From a virus: a DNA stretch of 64,000 nucleotides. The stretch's first letter is position 1. The number at the start of each line of letters is the position of its first letter. Below are positions 53,351 through 64,000 of this stretch, piece after piece. The DNA lies in IMG/VR virus record IMGVR_UViG_3300045125_000031, positions 1 through 64,000 of that record; one strand, written 5' to 3'. The position numbers were made by a program, and so were the translations under genes. The notes below the pieces were generated by a model. That model saw only the letters and a list, made by a program, of their open reading frames with translations. It was not told where the DNA came from and did no database searches.

Positions 53351-53911
53351 TGAAATAAATCTCCTTTTAGTCTTGTCGGTTTTTTTCTGTTCCATGGATA
53401 AAAACGGTAGAGAAGTATCTTATTGTATCATCTAAAACTGGAAGAGATCCGTGAACAATGTGCCCTCCATGTATATATAAAGAATTAGATTTTGGCTTAA
53501 CCGTAATATTAATATCTGGATAGTCTAACTCTCCACCAGTATATTCATCATTATAATATAAACAAAAGCCATATCCAATATAATAGTCTATATCTGTTCT
53601 CCATTGATCTGCATGATGCGTTATAAAATCTCCTTTTTTATATCTCTGTAAATGCAGTTTATCTGGATAATAAGAATATGACTCAAATAAATTTTTCATT
53701 TTTTCATTTATATCGTCAAAAATATTTTTGTCTTTAAAGCATAAAGTTTTTCCAAACCAAAAATCTGGAATATTTTGTTCTTTTTTCATTTCTTCATCAA
53801 GCCATTTATCTTCTGAAGTATTTTTATAATTTTATTAACTTCAAACATTTCTTCATCAGTAAGAAAGTTATTAATTTCATACACATCATCATATAGTTTA
53901 TTAATTTTCAT
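53347..53911 (-). CDS. 2OG-Fe(II) oxygenase, prolyl-4-hydroxylase-like (#8)
   Basis: HADQW...LYYNDEYTGGELDYP...HGSLPV...TIRYF. Confidence 0.85.
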
Positions 53912-53916
53912 TTTAG

Positions 53917-54586
53917 TTACATATACTTATTGTTAAATATATGACTTACCTCCAAGTGATTTATATTCATATGTTTTGGCAATGAGGCCACCCACCTAAT
54001 TGTTTCAGCCATGTCGTTAGCAGTAAGGGCATTATCTTTTTTCTATTTGTGTGTCAATTGTCCCTGGACATATTTCTGTTATCTTTATTCCATATTCAGG
54101 AAATTCCATACGCATTGTATCTATTAACGCCATTTGATCCTCGTTTGGCATTACTATAATTGCCTCCGCCTCTAAATGGAACTTTTCCACATAAAGATGT
54201 TATAAAGATAATTGTTGCAGACTCTGATTTTTTCATAGATGGAGCAAATAACTGAGACAAGTACATTGGCCCAGAAACATTAATATCATATGCTATTCTA
54301 AAATTTTCCATAGTTTCATTAATAATATGTGTTGGTCCAGAACCTCCGCCAGCATTATTAACTAATAAGTCTAATGTTATGTTTTTATATTTTTCAAAAA
54401 AAGTATTTAATTTCATTCTCTTTTGTTATATCTAATTTATAAATTTCTACCATTATCAGATAATAATCCAGACATTTTATCAACATCTCTCGAAACAGCA
54501 ATAACCTTATATCCGTTTTCAGATAAAAGTTTAACGGTTGCATAACCTACACCTTTACTTGCACCAGTAACGATGGCTGTTTTCAC
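53917..54586 (-). CDS. Short-chain dehydrogenase/reductase (SDR)
   Basis: GTG start MKTAIVTGASKGVG (TGxxxGxG), LLVNNAG, YSNAK (YxxxK), EICPGTIDT. Confidence 0.9.
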
Positions 54587-55317
54587 TACATGCCTTGCTG
54601 CTGGTTAAGTTGCATATTGTTATGTATCCAATGACCTGGGACCATATACTTAACACCAGACTTTACTGTATGTGCCGTATGAAAATATGGCGCTTCTGCT
54701 GGGAAAATAATAACGCTATTTGCTTTTGGTTTTATTCCGAAATCTATTGCATTGTTTGCAACAGCATCATCATAATCTAAATTAACTGGTGGAGCACCAT
54801 GAACCCATCCATCTTTGCTATTCCATCCACCATCATAATTTTTTAATTGAAAGGATATCTCTCCACCATCGCAGTCATCATTTAAATACATGACTAGAGA
54901 GTATCTCAAAGTCTTATCGCCATCTAATTGATCGAAGTGTGCACCCATTGCCATTCCAGTATAATATTTCTTAATATTAAATGTTGGGAATAGCCTTGGC
55001 TCGTCAAAATCACCTAGTGACTCTGCATAATCCTTACATACATTATATAGGGTTGTCATGACTGAATCATAAATATATTTGCTTTTTTCTCCAACTATAC
55101 CGCCAGACTTTGAGATGGCATCTATATCAAAAGTCTTTGTTTCTCCATAAATAAAATCTTTGTCATTAGAAGATGTCCACTTTTGCCAAAGATTAACCTT
55201 TGTATCATCATAAAACTCCATGGTATCTAACTCACTTAAAGTTTTTAAAAACACATCAAAGTTATCTATTGCGTCTGTATAATAATATACTTTTGGATCA
55301 AGAATTTCTCTATTCAT
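54586..55317 (-). CDS. 2OG-Fe(II) oxygenase, prolyl-4-hydroxylase-like (#7)
   Basis: HFDQ...MYLNDDCDGGEI...FHTAHTVKSGVKYM; intact ORF. Confidence 0.88.
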   Translation of the reverse strand: MNREILDPKVYYYTDAIDNFDVFLKTLSELDTMEFYDDTKVNLWQKWTSSNDKDFIYGETKTFDIDAISKSGGIVGEKSKYIYDSVMTTLYNVCKDYAESLGDFDEPRLFPTFNIKKYYTGMAMGAHFDQLDGDKTLRYSLVMYLNDDCDGGEISFQLKNYDGGWNSKDGWVHGAPPVNLDYDDAVANNAIDFGIKPKANSVIIFPAEAPYFHTAHTVKSGVKYMVPGHWIHNNMQLNQQQGM

Positions 55318-55318
55318 T

Positions 55319-55977
55319 TTAATACCTATTTCTTTCGTAATGACCTATTTCTTTTATAAAGCCGACTATAACATATCTTATTGGCCCATCCCCTACATGC
55401 TTTACACCATGCTCTATACTCTTCATTTCCTGGAAAAAACAATAAGTCTCCTGGTTTTGGCCTCAATGATATATCTTTATTTGGAAAGAATAATTCTCCA
55501 TCTACGTAGTCATCATTAATGTATATTATTGTTGCATAGTGTATAGATGGATCTGTATGCTGATCAGTATGTGATTTCAGTTCTACTCCCTTTTGCATTC
55601 TTTGAATAGTGGCAAGCCCACTAAGTTCAAGTCCTGGGAAAGAAGGGTGAATTATATTTGCTAGTCTTCCGTAAAAACATTTTGTTCTGGGTGATGCTTA
55701 ATATTTAAATTTTTATCTACCCAATTTTGAGTAATTTCAAATTTCCCTTCAGCGACTAAGTTGTCAACATCTTCTCTGCCAAACTTTTCTAAACAAAATC
55801 TTTTTAGATTTCCCATATACTCTACTTCCCAATCTTCTTGAGACGCACCATTAATTATATTCCAAATAAAATCTAATTCTTCTTTTGTCAAAAAGTCTTT
55901 AATCCAAAGTAGTTCTGGAGTTACTTCTTCAAACTCTAAGTTATTATTTTTAAATTTTCTTTCAAAGAATCCATCAT
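55319..55977 (-). CDS. 2OG-Fe(II) oxygenase, prolyl-4-hydroxylase-like (#6)
   Basis: HTDQH...IYINDDYVDGELFFP...EHGVKHVGDGPIRYV after correcting indels. Confidence 0.85.
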
Positions 55978-55978
55978 A

Positions 55979-56731
55979 TTAAACAGCATCTCCTTTAAAT
56001 AGATATTTATTGCCATCTTCATCTATTTTATATCCATCTTTTAGAAGTTCTTGCCATTCTGCTCTTTCAACTTCTTGCTTGGCTCTAGTCTCTTTCATTT
56101 CTTGCGCCCAAGCGTCTCTTAGTTCCTGTGGATATGCATCTTCTTCACGATCATCCCAGAATGAACCTATTGTATATCTAACTCCACTAGTTATAAGAGT
56201 TACCTCATGCATATTGTTGAATCCCCCGTCAAAAGCAGCAAGCATTCCAACTTTAGGCTTTATGCTTATTTGTTGATCTGGGAAATGCAAAAGTCCTCCA
56301 TCAAAGTTATCATTCAAATATAAAAATGCAGCATATCTACTTCTAGTAAATGCTCCAGAGTTTCCGTGTTCATCTGTATTATCAGAATGCTTTCTAGCAT
56401 AAGCCCCTGGTTCCCATTTCTGAGTATGATATCCAATTTGAGATATTATCTTTGAATCTAAATCATGAACGCTGGCAACTGCTTCTACAATACCCTTTTT
56501 AATTGTGTAAAAATATCAGAAGGTAAACCTTCGGCAATTACATGCTCGTCGTTATCTTGTGGCAAAACAGAAGAATAAGATTCATAAAACGATATAGGCA
56601 TCCAACTAATGGTCCCTATTTCTGCATGTTTATCTAAAACTTTTATAAGTTTATCGGCAGTTTTCAGAATCAATAAAGTTTTCATAAACAACTATATCTT
56701 TTGTTAGTCTAACTTTATTTTCTAAGTTCAT
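55979..56731 (-). CDS. 2OG-Fe(II) oxygenase, prolyl-4-hydroxylase-like (#5)
   Basis: KHSDNTD...LYLNDNFDGGLL...MHEVTLITSGVRYT. Confidence 0.87.
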
Positions 56732-57604
56732 CTAATTCTAACTCCTTCGATTGAATCTTTATTTGCAGCATATTTGCCTATCATCTCTTTATGTAATTTA
56801 GACCAACTTTCAGTACCAAGTTCTTTTTCTTTATCAAACCACTCCTGATCACCTATCTCCATATTTTTTCAAATAGTTTCTTATTAAGTATTTTTCTGTT
56901 TTAAAAGATGGGAAAACGCCATGTAAGTAAGGTTGATTATTTTTATTTAAAACATCTGGGTGTCCACTAGGGAAAACTACCCAATCACCTGCAACTGGTT
57001 TATACTTTATTAGATTACCATCTATATAAAAGTCAAGTTCTCCTCCATCATAATCATCATTAAAATAATAATTAGCAGTTATTGCAAACTTATAGCCTGG
57101 ACTTTTTACTGGCTCTCTTACATAATCAGAATGATATCGCATTGACATTACAGTATCTATATTTTTATTATATCTGCATATAGAAGGTCCTTCTTTTTTC
57201 CATAAAGGCAAATAATTTCCATCATGGTCTTTTGTTATTTCTTCTTCATTATAATTAAACATGTCTTTATATTTAGAAATATATGCGTCCATAGTTTTAT
57301 TAAAACCATTACTTATTTCTAACAAAAGATATTTTTGATCTTCTTGTATTTTACTATTAGTTTTTAAGTCATTTATCAATTGAGAATTAAATTCAGCAGG
57401 CTTTCCTGTTTTTGGATTTAATTTAGAAAGTTCTGGAAAAGCAGTCTGAATATAACGACCAAAACCTTGCCAATCAGACCATTCTCCTAAAATTCTATCT
57501 GAATTATTGTTAGCAGATTCTTTAACTATCTCATATAATCTTTCTGGTTGATCATTAACATTTTTATATATCATTATGTTTTCATATAATTCTATCTCTT
57601 CCAT
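56728..57604 (-). CDS. 2OG-Fe(II) oxygenase, prolyl-4-hydroxylase-like (#4)
   Basis: YHSDY...YYFNDDYDGGEL...YLHGVFP...TEKYLIR. Confidence 0.85.
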
Positions 57605-57606
57605 TA

Positions 57607-58364
57607 TTATCTCCTTATTCCTTTTTTTGGATCCCAAGACTTTACTTCTTCTTCTGTAGGAAAAATTCTATGGTACTTTGTATTTGGGTCTGGTTTTACA
57701 TCTCCAGTATGCTCTAAAATTTCCCAGAAAAACGGACATGTATATCTTAAAGATTTTGTGACTTCTGTTACTCCATGTACATAGTTCATGTCTCCTGGGA
57801 AAAAATATGCCGAACCACGTTTTGGTTTAAATTGAACTTTTTGATATGGAAAGTATAACTCTCCACCCTCATAATCATCATTGATGTAAAATAAACTTGA
57901 AATATCATAATATGGAAAATCGTTTGGTAATCCAGCATCTGATCCAAAATGCAATTCTTTGTCTGCGTGAGGCATTTGGAACTGTCCTGGATTCCACTTA
58001 ACAATTGTTTGTCCTGTAGACTGTACTTTGACCTTAAAAAAATCTTCAATAATTGGTTGAAGTCTACTAAATAATCCTACTAAAACTGGAAGAATTTTTG
58101 GATCATTTGCATTTAAAGATGGCGCAGTTGCAACTCTATCTTTCCAATAACTTGAATCATAAATAACAGTTCCATTTTTCATTTATATGGCTTTGAGTAA
58201 CATCCCAGATAGTTATGTTTCTTGCTGCTTTTTCTAAAAAATCAACTTCTTCTTCAGTCATAAAATTTTTCTAACTCAACTATATTTTCAGCACCATAGC
58301 CAAAAAACCCAGATGGGGTGATTGATGGATGTCTTATTACTTTTACTGCATCTTCTGGTATCAT
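57607..58364 (-). CDS. 2OG-Fe(II) oxygenase, prolyl-4-hydroxylase-like (#3)
   Basis: PHADKE...FYINDDYEGGELYFP...YVHGVTEVTKSLRYT. Confidence 0.88.
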
Positions 58365-58376
58365 ATTATTATTATA

Positions 58377-59083
58377 TCATCCTATAGTATTATCTTTTAC
58401 GTATAATTTTAGGGTTTTTACTTCATGAGACCCTACAGATTCATTCTTTTCATTTACCGCATTTCTATACCAATCGGTCCAGTTGCCAGATGAATTAAGC
58501 ACTTGTGCTGCTTCTCCGTAGGCAATGTTTGCATTTGTTCTAGAACGATCTACATCTTTATATTCTACAATCTCAATTGATGTATTATTTAAATTTGTTA
58601 AAGATATTGGAATAATTGTTGCAATAGGAGTTCCTGCTTTTATAATAGTTTCTACGTTAGCCTTTTTGCCTTAAGAGCAAGAGGCAACGGGTTATCATAA
58701 AATGAAGTACTTATTACACTAGACATAGTTTCAAAGTCATCATTAAAATAATTAACTGGATGTATTGTCCAAATACTAACATCTGGATCTGTTCTAAAAA
58801 CCAAAGAAGTGTTTAAACTTATTGAAGATTGACCTCTTCCAGAGTATGAACCTGATGGACTTACAATCTTTATATGCTGGTCTGTCTGATCATTTATTCC
58901 ATCCCACGTAAAAACTATATCTTCTGAACATGAAAGATACCAACCTATAACATTTGACTGAGTTACTGGAAAACATCTATATGCGTGGTTTTCAGACGTT
59001 AAGTCCATCCAATCTCTTTTAATTGACATTGGTTCGATGTTAAAAATACATCCCTGCATTTTTTCAACAGTAATATTAAACAT
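58377..59083 (-). CDS. DUF6065-like protein
   Basis: KRDWMDLT..NHAYRCFPVTQSNVIGW...DIVFTWDG...IKAGTPIATIIPI; family pattern recognised from memory. Confidence 0.65.
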
Positions 59084-59766
59084 TATTCATTTGCCCACTT
59101 TGGATCATACATATCTGGTGTATGATATTTTTACCTGTAATCTAACATTGTTACAATTGAATATTTAGTTCCAGAGTGTACTGGCATTGCTTGATGTGGA
59201 TACATAAAATTTGACGGGAAAACATATAGATCTCCAGCCTTTGGTTTTATATTTAGATTTTGCAGTCTAAAGTATAACTCTCCACCATCGTAGTCGTCAT
59301 TAATATAGGCAACTAAGGAAACGGTACAGTTATAAGAGAATCCATGGTCATGGTGTTCTTTGAAGTGTTGGCCTGGTCCATACTTGATAAAGTTAAGGCT
59401 TCCCAATATTTTAACGGCATAATGTTGTAATCTCTACGATAATCATCTACTGCTGCTGCCTGTGCATCATATACATCTTGCCAAATTCCCTGAAGCAATA
59501 AAGAGTCCTTGCTTGGATCTGATTCAATATCAGTTTTCTTAAACTTAAAGTCATAGCAGTCACGATAGTCTGGCATTAATTGTTGATATCCTACATATGC
59601 TGGTAGCCAGTGATAAGGCTTACCCTCTGGAGATAATTCCGCCCCATGGTGCTGGAGAACCCAAAATATTTTCTAATCTTTCTATAATATTTAGTTCTGG
59701 CTTAATGACACCTCTATAGCAAGTAATTCCAAACCCTAATGTTTCTTTTTCTGTCCAAGTTGACAT
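59083..59766 (-). CDS. 2OG-Fe(II) oxygenase, prolyl-4-hydroxylase-like (#2)
   Basis: EHHDHG...AYINDDYDGGELYF...YPHQAMPVHSGTKYS. Confidence 0.88.
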
Positions 59767-59777
59767 GATATCTCCTT

Positions 59778-60554
59778 TTACCTATACTCTCTTCTTGTCC
59801 AAACTTTATCTTTATATACCCCGCCATCTGGTTGACGATAAATATTTGCGTTATCTACTATTTTAGCATATACCGTTGATGAATCAAGAATATCAAGTTC
59901 GTGTCTCCCAATTTTCTCTTTTAAATGGGAGTATCTGCAAGTATGGTGTTCCTGCTGGTATAGTTCCCTCCCAACCTTCAATAATAAAAATGGAAAACTA
60001 CCTAATAATTCAACTTTATCTGAATCTACTACGCCAGTAGTATTCATAAAAGGTAGATCAAACCTATTCATAGGTGTCATAAATAATGCACTATAGCCTT
60101 CTGGTAACTTCATGCCCCAGTCTGGCATCCAGGCAAAATGATCTTTGTAATATCCTTGAGGATGTTCAAATTGTGCCATTGGTGGTCTAGATGTACAAAA
60201 ATCTCGATACATTTGATTTCTATTTTAAAATCTAAAGATCCTTTATTATTTTTAGTAAATGTAATGTCAGTTGAGTTCTAAATACATATCCAGTTATAAA
60301 GGCATCCATGATTGCTGGACATGCTTTCTCATGTAGGAATCATTCCATAATCATCTGTAGTTCCAGATTTTGGAAATGGACAAACCTCTTTGGGGCCTTA
60401 TAGTATTCTCCATTAATTGGATTTTTAGCAAACCTATCAGCATCCTTATACCATTGAGGTATTTCTTTTTGTGTAGGAGTTGGGGCAGATTTGCTTTCTT
60501 TGTTAGCCAAGGACGGTATGTCTTAAAAGAGACACTTTTTATATCATCGGACAT
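59778..60554 (-). CDS. DUF6065-like protein (second, divergent)
   Basis: IPQWYK...KACPAIMDAFITGYVF...LPEGYSALFMTPMNRFDLPF...GVVDSD...TIPAGTPYLQILPFKRE. Confidence 0.5.
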
Positions 60555-61267
60555 GCTGATGACCTAACTCATTAATATCAGTCATGATTACGACACAATA
60601 CTTTGTACCGCTCTTCATAGGAAGAGACGCATGCTCATAAATGTAGTTAGATGGGAATACAGCAATATCTCCAACCTTTGGTGTAAGAGTATAGCCGTCT
60701 AATCTTGGAAATTGTATTTCTCCGCCTTCGTAGTCATCATTGATATAGATAACAGCAGAGACAGTTGCATTATATGCTGGACCATGATCTGCGTGAATAT
60801 TAAAGTGTTTTCCTTCGCCTTCATATTTTACAAAATTAAATGCTTCATAATAAATAACATTAATTCCCCAATAACGTGCATAATCATCTATACAAAACTT
60901 TAATTTTTGATAAATTTCTTCATGTAGGTCATAAGTTCTCCATTAAATCTCATCTCTGGGGCCAAGATTTTCTTGCTTGTATTTAAAATCTACAGCATCT
61001 CTTGCTCTTTTAATTGGTGTTGTAGAGTTTGTAACCTGTGCTTCTGACCATTTGTATCTTTTTGTTCCATCTAAATTTGATTCAAGTATTTTAATATATC
61101 TGTCAGCATCATCTTTACTAAAAACATTTCTATAGACGTTTAACCCAAGTCCAGGATTTTCTACAACTATACCATTTGGTAAAGTTTTTGTTGGATATCT
61201 TGTTTGATGCAGTTTCTGAACGATCTTTAGTAAACCAAGGATTCTGGTTTTCATCATAAATTTCCAT
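60544..61267 (-). CDS. 2OG-Fe(II) oxygenase, prolyl-4-hydroxylase-like (#1)
   Basis: The C-half is absent from the ORF track: NIHADHGPAYNATVSAVIYINDDYEGGEIQFP...YEHASLPMKSGTKYC. Confidence 0.87.
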
Positions 61268-61292: not shown

Positions 61293-61731
61293 TTATGCTA
61301 CTGTGCTAAAAGAGGTTCCGTCCCTGTTGTATGTTTGTCCAACATATACAGTTTGTCTTTCTGGAATCTTTGCTAAGATCATACCTGCAGCATTTGCAGC
61401 AGCAAACATCTCTGCCTTTGGACCTTCTGACGGTACTGCCATTCTTGCAACAACAACATTGTTAGATAAGAATGCATACAAATTAAAAGAATCTAATTGC
61501 TCTTGTGTAGCATTTAATAGATTAGGGACCTGCAGTTCCTCCAGAAAATGATGAGCCATTGAAAGTTGCTCCATGAAGTGCTGTTTGCTTATATGCACTT
61601 GCATCAATTGCTGAAATAGTTGCTCCAGTTTCATAAACTGTATCAAGATTATCCATTACCTCTGGCTTATTGCTTGAATATATTCCAATAACATCATAAG
61701 CATCATTGTTTTCTACTAATATTGCGTACAT
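61293..61731 (-). CDS. Hypothetical protein with two internal pseudo-repeats (possible partner or chaperone of the upstream FN3 protein)
   Basis: ORFs 61522..61731 and 61293..61646 joined. The halves begin YAILVENN / YAFLSNN and end GATFNGSSF / GQTYNRDGTSF. AGGAG RBS and a TGCTATAAT promoter upstream. Confidence 0.6.
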
Positions 61732-61772
61732 TAATAATCTCCTTTAGTACTTTTATTATAGCATATGTTATT

Positions 61773-61804
61773 TAGTAGGGGCATATCTTCATATACCCCC
61801 ACTA
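61773..61804 (-). terminator. Hairpin directly after the stop of the FN3-PFF gene
   Basis: Minus strand TAGTGGGGGTATAT-GAAG-ATATGCCCCTACTA (14-bp stem with 2 G-U pairs); no clear U tract. Confidence 0.55.
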
Positions 61805-61807
61805 ATT

Positions 61808-62780
61808 TTAACAACCGCATGATCTTCCTGGACAGCATACGCTACATCTCCAACAATATCCACAGAAGCAACTTCCGCCTCCGCCACCAGATGGTGGTGG
61901 TGAGAAACTTGGTGGGAAGAATGGGAAGAACGGGAAGAATGGGAAGAACGGTGGGAAGAATGGGAAGTAAGGGAAGTAAGGGAAGAACGGTGGGAAGAAT
62001 GGGAAGTAAGGGAAGAATGGGAAGAACGGTGGGAAGAACGGGAAGAATGGGAAGAATGGGAAGAATGGTGGGAAGAATGGGAAGAACGGAAAGAATGGAA
62101 GAATGGTGGGAAGAATGGGAAGAACGGGAAGAATGGGAAAAACGGCGGGAAGAACGGGAAGAATGGTGGCGTGGTATTAACACTATTTGTAGTTACACCA
62201 GTTGACTCTCCACATGCATTTGTAAGATAAATTGTATAAGTTTGAGAACCTGGGATACTCCAGGGTCGTTAGCAGTATATGATGTGCAGAACCAGATATA
62301 CCAGTATAACTTGATCCATCCGAACCAGTGATTCTGATTGATGTTGATTGCAGTACCTCCAGTTGCTGATCCTGCTGGAAGAGTCCATGATATTGTGTTT
62401 GTGTTAGCAGATGTAGCAGATGCTGAAACACCTGTAGGATTGTTTGGTCTTGTTGTAACTGTTACGGAAGATGAAGCAGATGATGCTGCTGATGTTCCAG
62501 AAGCATTAGTTGCTGTTACTGTAAAAGTAGGTGTTGTTCCTGCAGCAATTCCAGTCACAGTAATTGGAGATGATGCTCCAGTTCCTGTTTGACCAGTGCT
62601 TGCTGTAACTGTATAAGATGTTGCTGGAGGAGAACCTGCGGTAATTCAAATGGCAACTGACACAGCACCATCGTTGTATGCTCTACCACTACATGTTTGT
62701 TGGAACAACACTTAATTGGTGGCTTTGGCTCCAAGAAGTCATTTGCTGCTGTGACTTTCTACCTACTTTTTAGTTGCCAT
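61808..62780 (-). CDS. Two fibronectin-type-III domains, Pro-Phe-Phe repeat, Gly linker and 8-Cys C-terminal peptide (probable virion appendage protein)
   Basis: ATG at 62780 with AGGGG RBS. FN3 motifs PATSYTVTAS...ITVTGI......TFTVTATNASGTS and PNNPTGVSA...TISWTLP...TYTIYLTNACGES. Then TTPPFFPFF-(PPFFPFFPFFPFF)x6-PPSFSPPPSGGGGGSCFCGYCWRCSVCCPGRSCGC* (TAA at 61808-61810). Requires correcting a few indels, one inside the repeat at ~62098. Confidence 0.85.
61910..62169 (-). repeat. Coding tandem repeat: 9-nt CCN-TTC-TTC units nested in a 39-nt higher-order unit
   Basis: 26 P-[F/Y]-F triplets. Variation is confined to synonymous third positions (CCA/CCG/CCT, TTC/TTT) plus three F-to-Y changes. 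Confidence 0.92.
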
Positions 62781-62803: not shown

Positions 62804-64000
62804 TTACTTAAGATCTCCGTAAACAATCCAGGTATTTGCTGCTCTCTTCAATAGAGTTGCAGATGACCATTGTGTACGTAGAGTTAATCCTGGAGTAGCA
62901 TTTACAGTTACTCCTGCGCCTGCTGCAATTGCAACTGCGCCTGTATTTGTCTGAAGAACATCTGATAGAAGTTCCTATTGGGAAATTCGAGGTCGACTGC
63001 AGGAATTGTAACGTTTACTGCTGAACCACCAGTGTGAGAAACCTCAATAAGTGAATCTCTTTCGAGTAATGCTCGCAAGAGTACTACGCTGTTTTTCTGA
63101 ATAATTGGTGTTCGTGAAGGTACACCTTCCTTTGTTTGTGTTCCGTCTCGTAAATGCAACACCGCTTGCTGCAACGGTTACTGTTCCAGTAAATGTTGGT
63201 TTTGCAAGTGGTGCTTTTGCTGCAAGAGAAGTTGTTGCAGTTGTAGCAAAGTTTGCATCGTCACCAAGTGCTGCTGCAAGTTCATCAAGAGTGTTGAGTG
63301 CTGCTGGAGCAGATGCGATTACTGCATTTATTGAGATGTTGCATCTGCAATTGCTTCTACTTTGCAGTTGCGATTGCTGTTGACTTGTGCTATTGATACT
63401 GGCTTATTTGGCATCTGATGTGTTGTCAACATTGCCAAGACCTACCATTGACTTTGTAACACCAGATACTGTTCCAGTAAATGTTGGTGATTCAAGATCT
63501 GCCTTTGCAGCAAAGACTTGTTGAAAGTCCATCAATCTTGACTGTGCAATTGCTGCTGAAGCATTAATATCAGCATTTACAATTGTGTCCGTTTTCAATC
63601 TTTGCAGATGTAACGGCTCCATCAACAATCTTTGATGTTGTTCACAGAGTCTCCGCAAGTTTGTCTGCGGTTACGTTGGAGTCAACAATCTTTGCAGTTG
63701 TAACTGTATTATCTGTTGGTGTTCTTGTATCTGATAAACGAGCATCGTCTGTAAGCACAAGATCTGCAGTATCTAAAATTCCATGTATGTTTGTTGTGTC
63801 TGCTCTGTATGATCTTCAATTTCTGAAGACAAGGCCAATGCTGATGTATCGTCAATTCCATGTACATTAGTTGTATATGATCCATGTGTTGAAATAGCAT
63901 CAGTTACATAAGATTCTGTTGCAAGTTCACCTGTATCTAAAATTCCGTGAACATTTTGTGTAAGTAAGTTATGAGTTCCTACTTCACCAACTGCTGCGGT
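62804..64000 (-). CDS. Tail fibre-like protein (5' part lies outside the window)
   Basis: Repeated T.NVHGI.DT..L units; VTKSMVGLGNVDNTSDANKP; APAALNTLDELAAALGDDANFAT..LAAKAPLA.PTFTGTV fibre motifs; C-terminal module FPIGT...TVNATPGLTLRTQWSSATLLKRAANTWIVYGDLK*. Confidence 0.75.

Follow-up and report, generated by a model that had tools for sequence, protein, structure and literature searches.

Reading frame and architecture of the gene at 62780..61808

The window analysed here comprises 64,000 nucleotides (nt), the initial 64 kb of a linear virus record of 101 kb (IMG/VR IMGVR_UViG_3300045125_000031, rated 92% complete) from an uncultured phage of about 101 kb. On its minus strand, positions 62780..61808 form one protein-coding gene, the last of a tail-fibre module, which encodes two fibronectin type III (FN3) domains, a repeat built of proline, phenylalanine and tyrosine only, and a Cys-rich tail. 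We refer to it as the PFF gene; its features are the following.

62780..61808, minus strand: the whole FN3-FN3-(P/F/Y repeat)-Cys-tail gene, about 324 codons with ten insertions or deletions (indels) of 1–2 nt; homologues are intact
62170..62780, minus strand: conserved N-terminal peptide (MATKK..NDFLEPKPP) followed by two FN3 domains; all but one of the ten indels lie here
61916..62169, minus strand: Pro/Phe/Tyr repeat, PPFFPFF and six 13-residue units PPFFP[FY]FP[FY]FPFF, with a DNA period of 39 nt
62097..62099, minus strand: loss of one base inside repeat unit 2 (on the minus strand, CCC becomes CC), which shifts the frame
61808..61915, minus strand: PPSFSPPPS-GGGGGS linker, 21-residue tail with 8 Cys (CxCGYCWRCxVCCPGRxCxC) and stop; the tail is kept in homologues

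The ATG at 62780 is preceded by a ribosome-binding-like AAGGGG motif, and the stop codon lies at 61810–61808. Three-frame translation revealed that the end of the second FN3 domain (...GSQTYTIYLTNACGESTGVTTNSVNTT) continues in frame into PPFFPFF; the frame breaks at about 62098, resumes one frame over and ends with ...SCFCGYCWRCSVCCPGRSCGC and the stop. With an N placed at the frame break, a unit table gives 85 residues of P, F and Y only, in agreement with the preliminary description of this locus, which had read PPFFPFF followed by six 13-residue units. Tandem Repeats Finder reports a period of 39 with 6.5 copies, 90% matches, no indels and a score of 401. When codon variation is tabulated across the units, every difference is either a synonymous change of Pro or Phe codons (CCA/CCG/CCT, TTC/TTT) or a TTC/TAC exchange (F/Y), as had also been claimed. 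The only open reading frames (ORFs) called at the repeat are an ILP frame (61842..62183, minus strand) and a GRMGRT/EEWEE frame (61765..62205, plus strand), both of them wrong-frame readings, as first described; the PFF frame lacks a start codon downstream of its last stop and is absent from the ORF list.

The intact homologue L005:2063-3040 shares 91% nucleotide identity with the window gene and differs from it by ten indels of 1–2 nt. Alignment places a 1-nt deletion at about 62098 (minus-strand C, plus-strand G) and nine further indels of 1–2 nt at about 62256, 62285, 62349, 62639, 62651, 62698, 62711, 62752 and 62771, which matches the missing G and the indels within 62190–62770 suspected from the window alone. 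The 64-kb window contains only 23 ORFs of at least 150 amino acids (aa), and the upstream tail-fibre gene, the downstream genes p145 and oxy1 (described below) and further genes were recovered from it by tblastn in 2–4 pieces. Because neighbouring essential genes are equally broken and long ORFs are few, the indels are most likely sequencing or assembly errors rather than decay. The gene therefore looks hidden in this error-rich assembly, as the preliminary description had it, but not elsewhere, where it has been called, under the names 'hypothetical protein' or 'Fibronectin type III'.

Selection on the peptide is evident from substitutions in the PFF frame. Over the 85 repeat codons, the window and the intact homologue L005 differ by 12 synonymous and 2 F/Y changes. 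Proline codons over 40 distinct repeats number 792 CCA, 337 CCG, 129 CCT and 25 CCC. The 3180 units in 181 distinct runs without interruption have FF as their aromatic pair 2620 times, YF 559 times and FY once. Since either codon could mutate from TTC to TAC with the same ease, this asymmetry is a residue-level constraint: tyrosine is tolerated only directly after proline. The claim that selection acts on the peptide is borne out by both comparisons. Separately, we note that the Tyr-after-Pro rule may be the mark of enzyme recognition or of a packing rule.

Could there be no gene here, the repeat being a neutral microsatellite, the ILP or HSS frame being the real one, or the copy being a true pseudogene? 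The repeat can be read through without a stop in all three frames of the minus strand and in one of the plus strand, and the window copy carries ten frame-breaking indels. In every homologue, however, the PFF frame is the sole frame, among others that are also open, that links the FN3 domains to a conserved C-terminal element (a Cys tail or a Hint domain); it is continuous with the FN3 domains in the intact single ORFs of many homologues and is the frame conserved among them. The ILP and HSS frames lack this link and are rejected as coding frames, the synonymous substitution pattern speaks against a neutral microsatellite, and the equally broken neighbours and scarcity of long ORFs argue for assembly error. 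As far as the frame is concerned, the idea that there is no gene is thus largely refuted, and we regard this reading as a whole, a pseudogene included, as barely credible.

A family of proline–aromatic modules with variable ends

Close relatives, assembled from other samples, came from searches of viral contigs with either the FN3 part or the C-terminal part as query. Intact single ORFs of 316–325 aa share the architecture of the window gene (L004:3863-4840, L005:2063-3040 and L007:3863-4813), more distant relatives are single ORFs of 250–440 aa, and short-read viral contigs carry single ORFs of the same architecture with 290–430 aa. A search of 5.8 billion clustered proteins returned 751 relatives at E ≤0.001 among the candidates scored, and P(P)x[FY] repeats are present in 96 of the best 120. 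The sources list them as 'hypothetical protein' or 'Fibronectin type III [uncultured Caudovirales phage]'. PFF motif strings turned up in no biological context across about 8.4 million full texts, and literature on 'PFF repeat' and 'PPFF' yielded unrelated medical abbreviations only. The PFF module is genuine, widespread and so far undescribed: hundreds of uncultured phages carry it on fibre-associated proteins, in which a two- or three-letter Pro/Phe(/Tyr) polymer is maintained by selection.

Uninterrupted Pro/Phe(/Tyr) tracts reach 181 residues, and the family-wide runs total 4736 P, 5800 F and 560 Y. The order of PFF and PPFF units is irregular in 153 of the 181 distinct runs, with 3.17–4.0 residues per unit, and the 13-mer is rare. 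As the 13-residue period is not conserved, it is best explained by recent duplication of a 39-nt unit in the window's lineage. The 'strict 3-in-13 nested period' that had been proposed to define a structure does not survive this comparison.

We predicted the structure of a homologue with AlphaFold2 (AF2) on a 34-homologue alignment. Residues 20–205 form two β-sandwich FN3 domains with a predicted local distance difference test score (pLDDT) above 90, and the top Foldseek matches are tandem FN3 pairs (6tpv and 1qg3, at about E 3e-10). The Pfam fn3 profile (PF00041) scores 19.7 bits in the L004 protein, below the gathering cut-off of 25, and 37.6–45.9 bits in the relatives P0012, P0033, P0056 and P0084. 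Monomer prediction, which the preliminary description had recommended, thus gave a confident answer for the FN3 domains but assigned no structure to the repeat, where pLDDT is 41–57 and DSSP finds no secondary structure; these values speak neither for nor against the polyproline-II rod first suggested, an extended left-handed helix with three residues per turn. The Cys tail is predicted as a short helix (pLDDT 59–74). By composition, the repeat is two-thirds aromatic, with no charges in its 85 residues. A collagen-like triple helix, one of the structures first suggested, fails the test of Gly at every third residue: the repeat contains no Gly, and mixed 3- and 4-residue units interrupt the 3-residue period. 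We also rejected a plant extensin or hydroxyproline-rich glycoprotein type, as the repeat has no Ser or Ala and its Pro runs never exceed two.

Three kinds of ending follow the repeat: a Cys-rich tail, a Cys-to-HN(K) domain or a short tail without Cys. Cys-rich tails hold 4–8 Cys and often include a YCW[RQ]C motif. The domain that starts with Cys and ends with HN(K), about 160–200 residues long, directly follows the repeat in many relatives (for example, L041:3860-5119, P0012, P0033, P0056 and P0084). PT-HINT scores 29.9 bits in P0084 against a cut-off of 27.7, and Intein_splicing and Hint_2 fall below their cut-offs in other sister proteins. Such a Hint-like domain implies that these sister proteins may self-cleave at the end of the rod. 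The window protein carries the Cys-rich tail and no Hint domain.

The FN3-FN3 scaffold of sister phages, placed after the tail-fibre gene, also carries other low-complexity C-terminal modules of at least four types, and the loci with these four lack both oxy1 and the second oxygenase gene oxy2.

L010, L013, L045 and L077: PFSVFGF-type module
L035 and L068: P[FY]xFT-type module with Cys tail
L064 and L072: PxFC-type module
L024, L069, L075 and L081: Gly-rich module

Conversely, the PFF module, ended by a Hint domain or by Cys, is also joined to N-termini that have one FN3 domain or a PASTA annotation (P0124, of 326 aa, P0125, P0126 and P0130) and, being present behind such other N-termini, is portable.

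The PFF protein had no tblastn match among the cultured phages of INPHARED, blastn of the region against cultured phages returned short tail-fibre repeat matches only, and the oxy1 product matched only cyanophage oxygenases there, at less than 42% identity. As the PFF protein is unmatched and oxy1 so distant, the phage has no cultured relative in the INPHARED collection. The ESM Atlas gave no usable match, and a search with the repeat and tail alone gave 15 hits, composition correction suppressing the repeat, and brought to light PFF modules attached to N-termini other than FN3-FN3. Among 77 loci on cellular genome contigs, none had a Pro/aromatic repeat; the scan patterns were FN3, and generic FN3 proteins were returned. 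A search of the phage for host clues found neither WhiB nor tRNA genes, and a scan for promoters and terminators found nothing above shuffled expectation.

Linkage of the module to an island of oxygenase genes

The PFF gene lies between a tail-fibre gene and an island of genes similar to prolyl 4-hydroxylases (P4H) of the 2-oxoglutarate (2OG) and Fe(II)-dependent oxygenase class. All are on the minus strand.

62807..64000, minus strand: 3′ part of the upstream tail-fibre gene, running off the window; frameshifted, in 4 tblastn pieces, the homologue matching Mtd_N and tail-fibre PHROGs
61293..61731, minus strand: p145, between the PFF gene and oxy1, with one frameshift
60548..61267, minus strand: oxy1, P4H-like 2OG-Fe(II) oxygenase, frameshifted, with a PF13640 match at 60589–60837
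59781..60554, minus strand: p259-like gene (tblastn 53% identity, full length; no Pfam family)
59086..59766, minus strand: oxy2, second P4H-like 2OG-Fe(II) oxygenase (profile match and tblastn)
58380..59083, minus strand: DUF6065 protein (PF19541 at 93 bits in the homologue; tblastn 94–96% identity)
54029..58364, minus strand: oxy3 to oxy6 (P4H-like) and the short-chain dehydrogenase that closes the island (homologue map, profile matches and tblastn)

The intact relative L094 carries, in order, a fibre-like gene (626 aa), a 154-aa ORF, a tail-fibre gene (737 aa, with Mtd_N and tail-fibre PHROGs), the PFF gene, p145, oxy1, p259, oxy2, DUF6065, oxy3 to oxy6, a short-chain dehydrogenase and a class II ribonucleotide reductase; six genes of this block reach the PF13640 cut-off. 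Genes mapped from an intact relative return from the window in 1–4 pieces each, and gene calls on this record need to be read with homologues as a guide. The 101-kb genome has ten PF13640 matches, seven in the island after the PFF gene (window positions 53394–60837) and the others elsewhere, for example at 73836–74089 and 97271–97450.

By profile score and motif, oxy1 is classed as a P4H-type 2OG-Fe(II) oxygenase (PF13640). Its homologue scores 43.8 bits against a cut-off of 27, and the residues H158, D160, H212 and K222, conserved in at least 97% of 124 distinct orthologues, correspond to the HxD...H iron triad and a Lys ten residues past the distal His, as in collagen-type P4H. The nearest solved sequences are those of the Bacillus anthracis P4H (3itq and 5hv0), a weak similarity at E 6.5e-4.

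To follow the linkage forwards, we compared distinct FN3-FN3 family members for which sufficient sequence was available downstream. Of the evaluable PFF-type genes, 37 of 37 have a full-length oxy1-like gene behind them (34–100% identity, gap 15–2233 nt); of the FN3-FN3 sister genes with other C-terminal repeats, 0 of 20 do. These sister loci lack oxy2 as well and have at most p259-like or distant oxy3-, oxy4- or oxy5-like genes. The order of the island itself is conserved, as either oxy1-p259-oxy2-DUF6065-oxy3-oxy4 or oxy1-oxy2-DUF6065-p259-oxy3-oxy4.

The reverse comparison started from oxy1. Among the best 80 loci of a first oxy1 clade (79–100% identity), 78 have a Pro/aromatic repeat ORF on the same strand 87–3308 nt upstream, and the remaining 2 are cut by the contig end, which leaves 78 of 78 evaluable loci. 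In a second clade (57–100% identity to the enzyme of L064), a repeat ORF lies upstream in 70 of 80 loci, and 2 are cut near a contig end. Of the eight without a repeat in the available upstream sequence, five have less than 2.6 kb of it, related loci showing gaps of about 2 kb. For the other three, with 4.3–4.5 kb upstream, a pattern search of the full contig located the repeat in two, at a distance of 4.5–5.4 kb upstream, and the third, an 11-kb fragment, stops at that point. No oxy1 locus in the two clades (80 and 80 loci) was thus confirmed to lack a PFF gene.

The association of PFF and oxy1 is perfect but carries modest statistical weight. In a tree built from the FN3-FN3 part, four changes each are needed for the PFF trait and for oxy1, and the two change together; two of these changes are forced by well-supported branches.

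The gene between the PFF gene and oxy1 follows the Cys tip. A p145-like gene is present at this position in 35 of 47 distinct Cys-tail loci and in 0 of 31 loci without a Cys tail, and the 12 Cys-tail loci without it all have gaps of at least 349 nt, room for a diverged equivalent. The p145 protein (L004:4917-5354) is modelled by AF2 at a pLDDT of 92.5 and contains two W(N/D)G(S/T)SF motifs; against the Protein Data Bank, Foldseek returned nothing at E ≤0.001, and the best VIA-align Z score was 4.1. We suggest that p145 may be a partner of the Cys tip, acting as a chaperone, binder or adaptor.

A candidate hydroxylated stalk and competing readings

We propose, with a probability of roughly 60%, that the PFF protein is a component of the virion tail fibre in which the Pro/aromatic tract forms a hydrophobic stalk that is hydroxylated by the co-encoded oxygenases and capped at its C-terminal end. 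That the protein is structural is suggested by its two folded FN3 domains and its place in the tail-fibre module. The tract would be a stiff, extended and very hydrophobic stalk that presents the C-terminal tip, and its prolines would be converted to hydroxyproline during infection by at least oxy1 and oxy2, a modification that may keep an aggregation-prone Pro-Phe-Phe polymer soluble or ordered. The C-terminus would be the working end and carry a lineage-specific cap, a Cys-rich knob with p145 in the window's phage and a self-cleaving Hint/intein-like domain or a short tail in sister phages. Because the module recurs always beside proline-hydroxylase-like genes, the tract is their likely substrate; hydroxylation of the repeat by the adjacent enzymes is well supported by linkage, although not proven. 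The earlier suggestion that such a rod may need hydroxylation accordingly finds strong backing in the genomic linkage to the P4H-like island, whereas the chemistry we only infer.

Several points weigh against this proposal. The tree provides only 2–4 independent contrasts (sign test p 0.5), and inherited synteny could account for the linkage. With 6–8 oxygenases and the DUF6065, p259 and dehydrogenase genes, the island could have other proteins as its targets, and further PF13640 genes lie elsewhere in the genome. Collagen-type proline is not the sole residue that PF13640 enzymes hydroxylate. The repeat has no confident AF2 structure, and the irregular order of PFF and PPFF units argues against a single defined helical superstructure. 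In the chlorovirus PBCV-1, hydroxyproline was not detected in virions (PMC7019647).

The alternative that fares best, which we nonetheless consider unlikely, is that the tract is an unmodified hydrophobic spacer or low-complexity linker and that the island adjoins it by conserved synteny, acting on other virion or host proteins, nucleic acids or small molecules. The 2–4 independent co-changes on the tree and the PF13640 genes elsewhere in the genome fit this idea, as does the frequency with which aquatic phages carry multiple 2OG-Fe(II) oxygenases with unassigned targets (PMC3037559, and the cyanophage matches of oxy1). Yet oxy1 and oxy2 are absent from 20 of 20 sister loci with a non-Pro-Phe repeat, including clades nested in PFF clades, and the distance from the stop of the PFF gene to the start of oxy1 is as small as 15–90 nt.

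The tract could instead serve mainly as a hydrophobic probe at the fibre tip that adheres, or inserts into a membrane or envelope, whether hydroxylated or not, an idea compatible with the proposed stalk. Its aromatic, uncharged composition over 85 residues and the fusion of the module to a PASTA-annotated N-terminus in P0124 are in line with this. Insertion was among the possibilities first raised for this locus, but the protein has no signal peptide or lipid-anchoring signal, a Pro at every 3–4 residues excludes a transmembrane helix, and the searches for WhiB and tRNA clues to the host came back empty. We therefore judge the probe improbable.

Least plausible of the functional readings, and held by us to be very improbable, is a precursor like those of ribosomally synthesized and post-translationally modified peptides, whose repeat or Cys tail is tailored by the island enzymes and released as a free peptide: in its favour are a substrate gene followed by a tight block of tailoring-type enzymes, putatively self-cleaving Hint domains in relatives and a Cys-rich terminus. 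Against it, the Hint domain is the last element of the protein, C-terminal to the repeat, so that cleavage would discard the Hint domain rather than free the repeat; the folded pair of FN3 domains and a location within the tail-fibre module favour a structural protein, and the island has no protease, transporter or radical-SAM genes.

Returning to the hydroxylated stalk, a more specific and tentative version, which may be right but which we do not favour, holds that the tract is a natural poly(hydroxyprolyl-Phe-Phe) rod, neither collagen, coiled coil nor β-helix, in which the hydroxylases tune the solubility and packing of an aromatic-zipper stalk and a Cys knot or removable Hint domain sets the register of several chains. 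The Pro-Phe-Phe tripeptide is known in materials chemistry as a strongly self-assembling, collagen-mimicking unit (PMC8113556). Synthetic Pro-Phe-Phe tripeptides form stiff helical-like sheets with a dry Phe zipper, and replacing Pro by hydroxyproline alters their packing (PMC8113556). The residue chemistry of synthetic Pro-Phe-Phe as well as Hyp-Phe-Phe is that of the phage repeat; the synthetic forms are free tripeptides in crystals and fibres, whereas the phage unit is polymerized in a natural protein. If this version holds, the rod would be an unprecedented phage fibre design, and the 2OG-Fe(II) oxygenases that abound in aquatic phages would have a first assigned substrate.

Partial parallels exist in known systems. 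Collagen and the collagen-like proteins of bacteria or phages with P4H (Bacillus anthracis, 3itq/5hv0) share with the PFF locus a triplet-based Pro-rich repeat, a fibre-type protein and an adjacent P4H-like enzyme, and the C-terminal Cys cluster of the PFF protein may recall collagen cystine knots; the PFF repeat differs in having no Gly at all and irregularly mixed PFF and PPFF units. In the eukaryotic virus PBCV-1, the substrates described by Eriksson et al. in 1999 are reportedly repeat peptides that are charged and rich in Pro. The small P4H of PBCV-1 hydroxylates peptides that contain Pro (PMC7019647), and PBCV-1 resembles the present locus in that the virus encodes both a P4H-type 2OG-Fe(II) oxygenase (A085R) and its own proline-rich repeat proteins, the presumed substrates (PMC7019647). 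The phage repeat, by comparison, consists purely of Pro and aromatic residues, sits on a protein of the fibre module and is followed by 6–8 oxygenases. For the 2OG-Fe(II) oxygenases of cyanophages, the proposed roles are speculative and include DNA repair and control of 2OG levels (PMC3037559). The locus offers a specific candidate pair of substrate and enzyme for this class of aquatic-phage oxygenases, whose targets have been open since the first cyanophage genomes, and a tract that proved both hydroxylated and structural would represent a fibre element of a new kind.

The variable ends also have counterparts. C-terminal intramolecular chaperone domains of phage tail fibres and tailspikes self-cleave, as do Hedgehog/Hint proteins. 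The Cys-start, HN(K)-end domain that follows the repeat in sister proteins would fit a similar self-removal after assembly; the known fibre chaperone domains belong to another fold family, and the window protein has a Cys-rich tail instead. As caps, the set of Cys knob with p145, Hint domain and short tail would amount to a new system for diversifying fibre tips. Within the island, the conserved gene p259 (L094:7066-7845) also adjoins sister proteins without PFF repeats, sometimes in two copies. DUF6065 is mentioned in no paper found by our literature search, and p259 shows only a local match to it (E 0.013).

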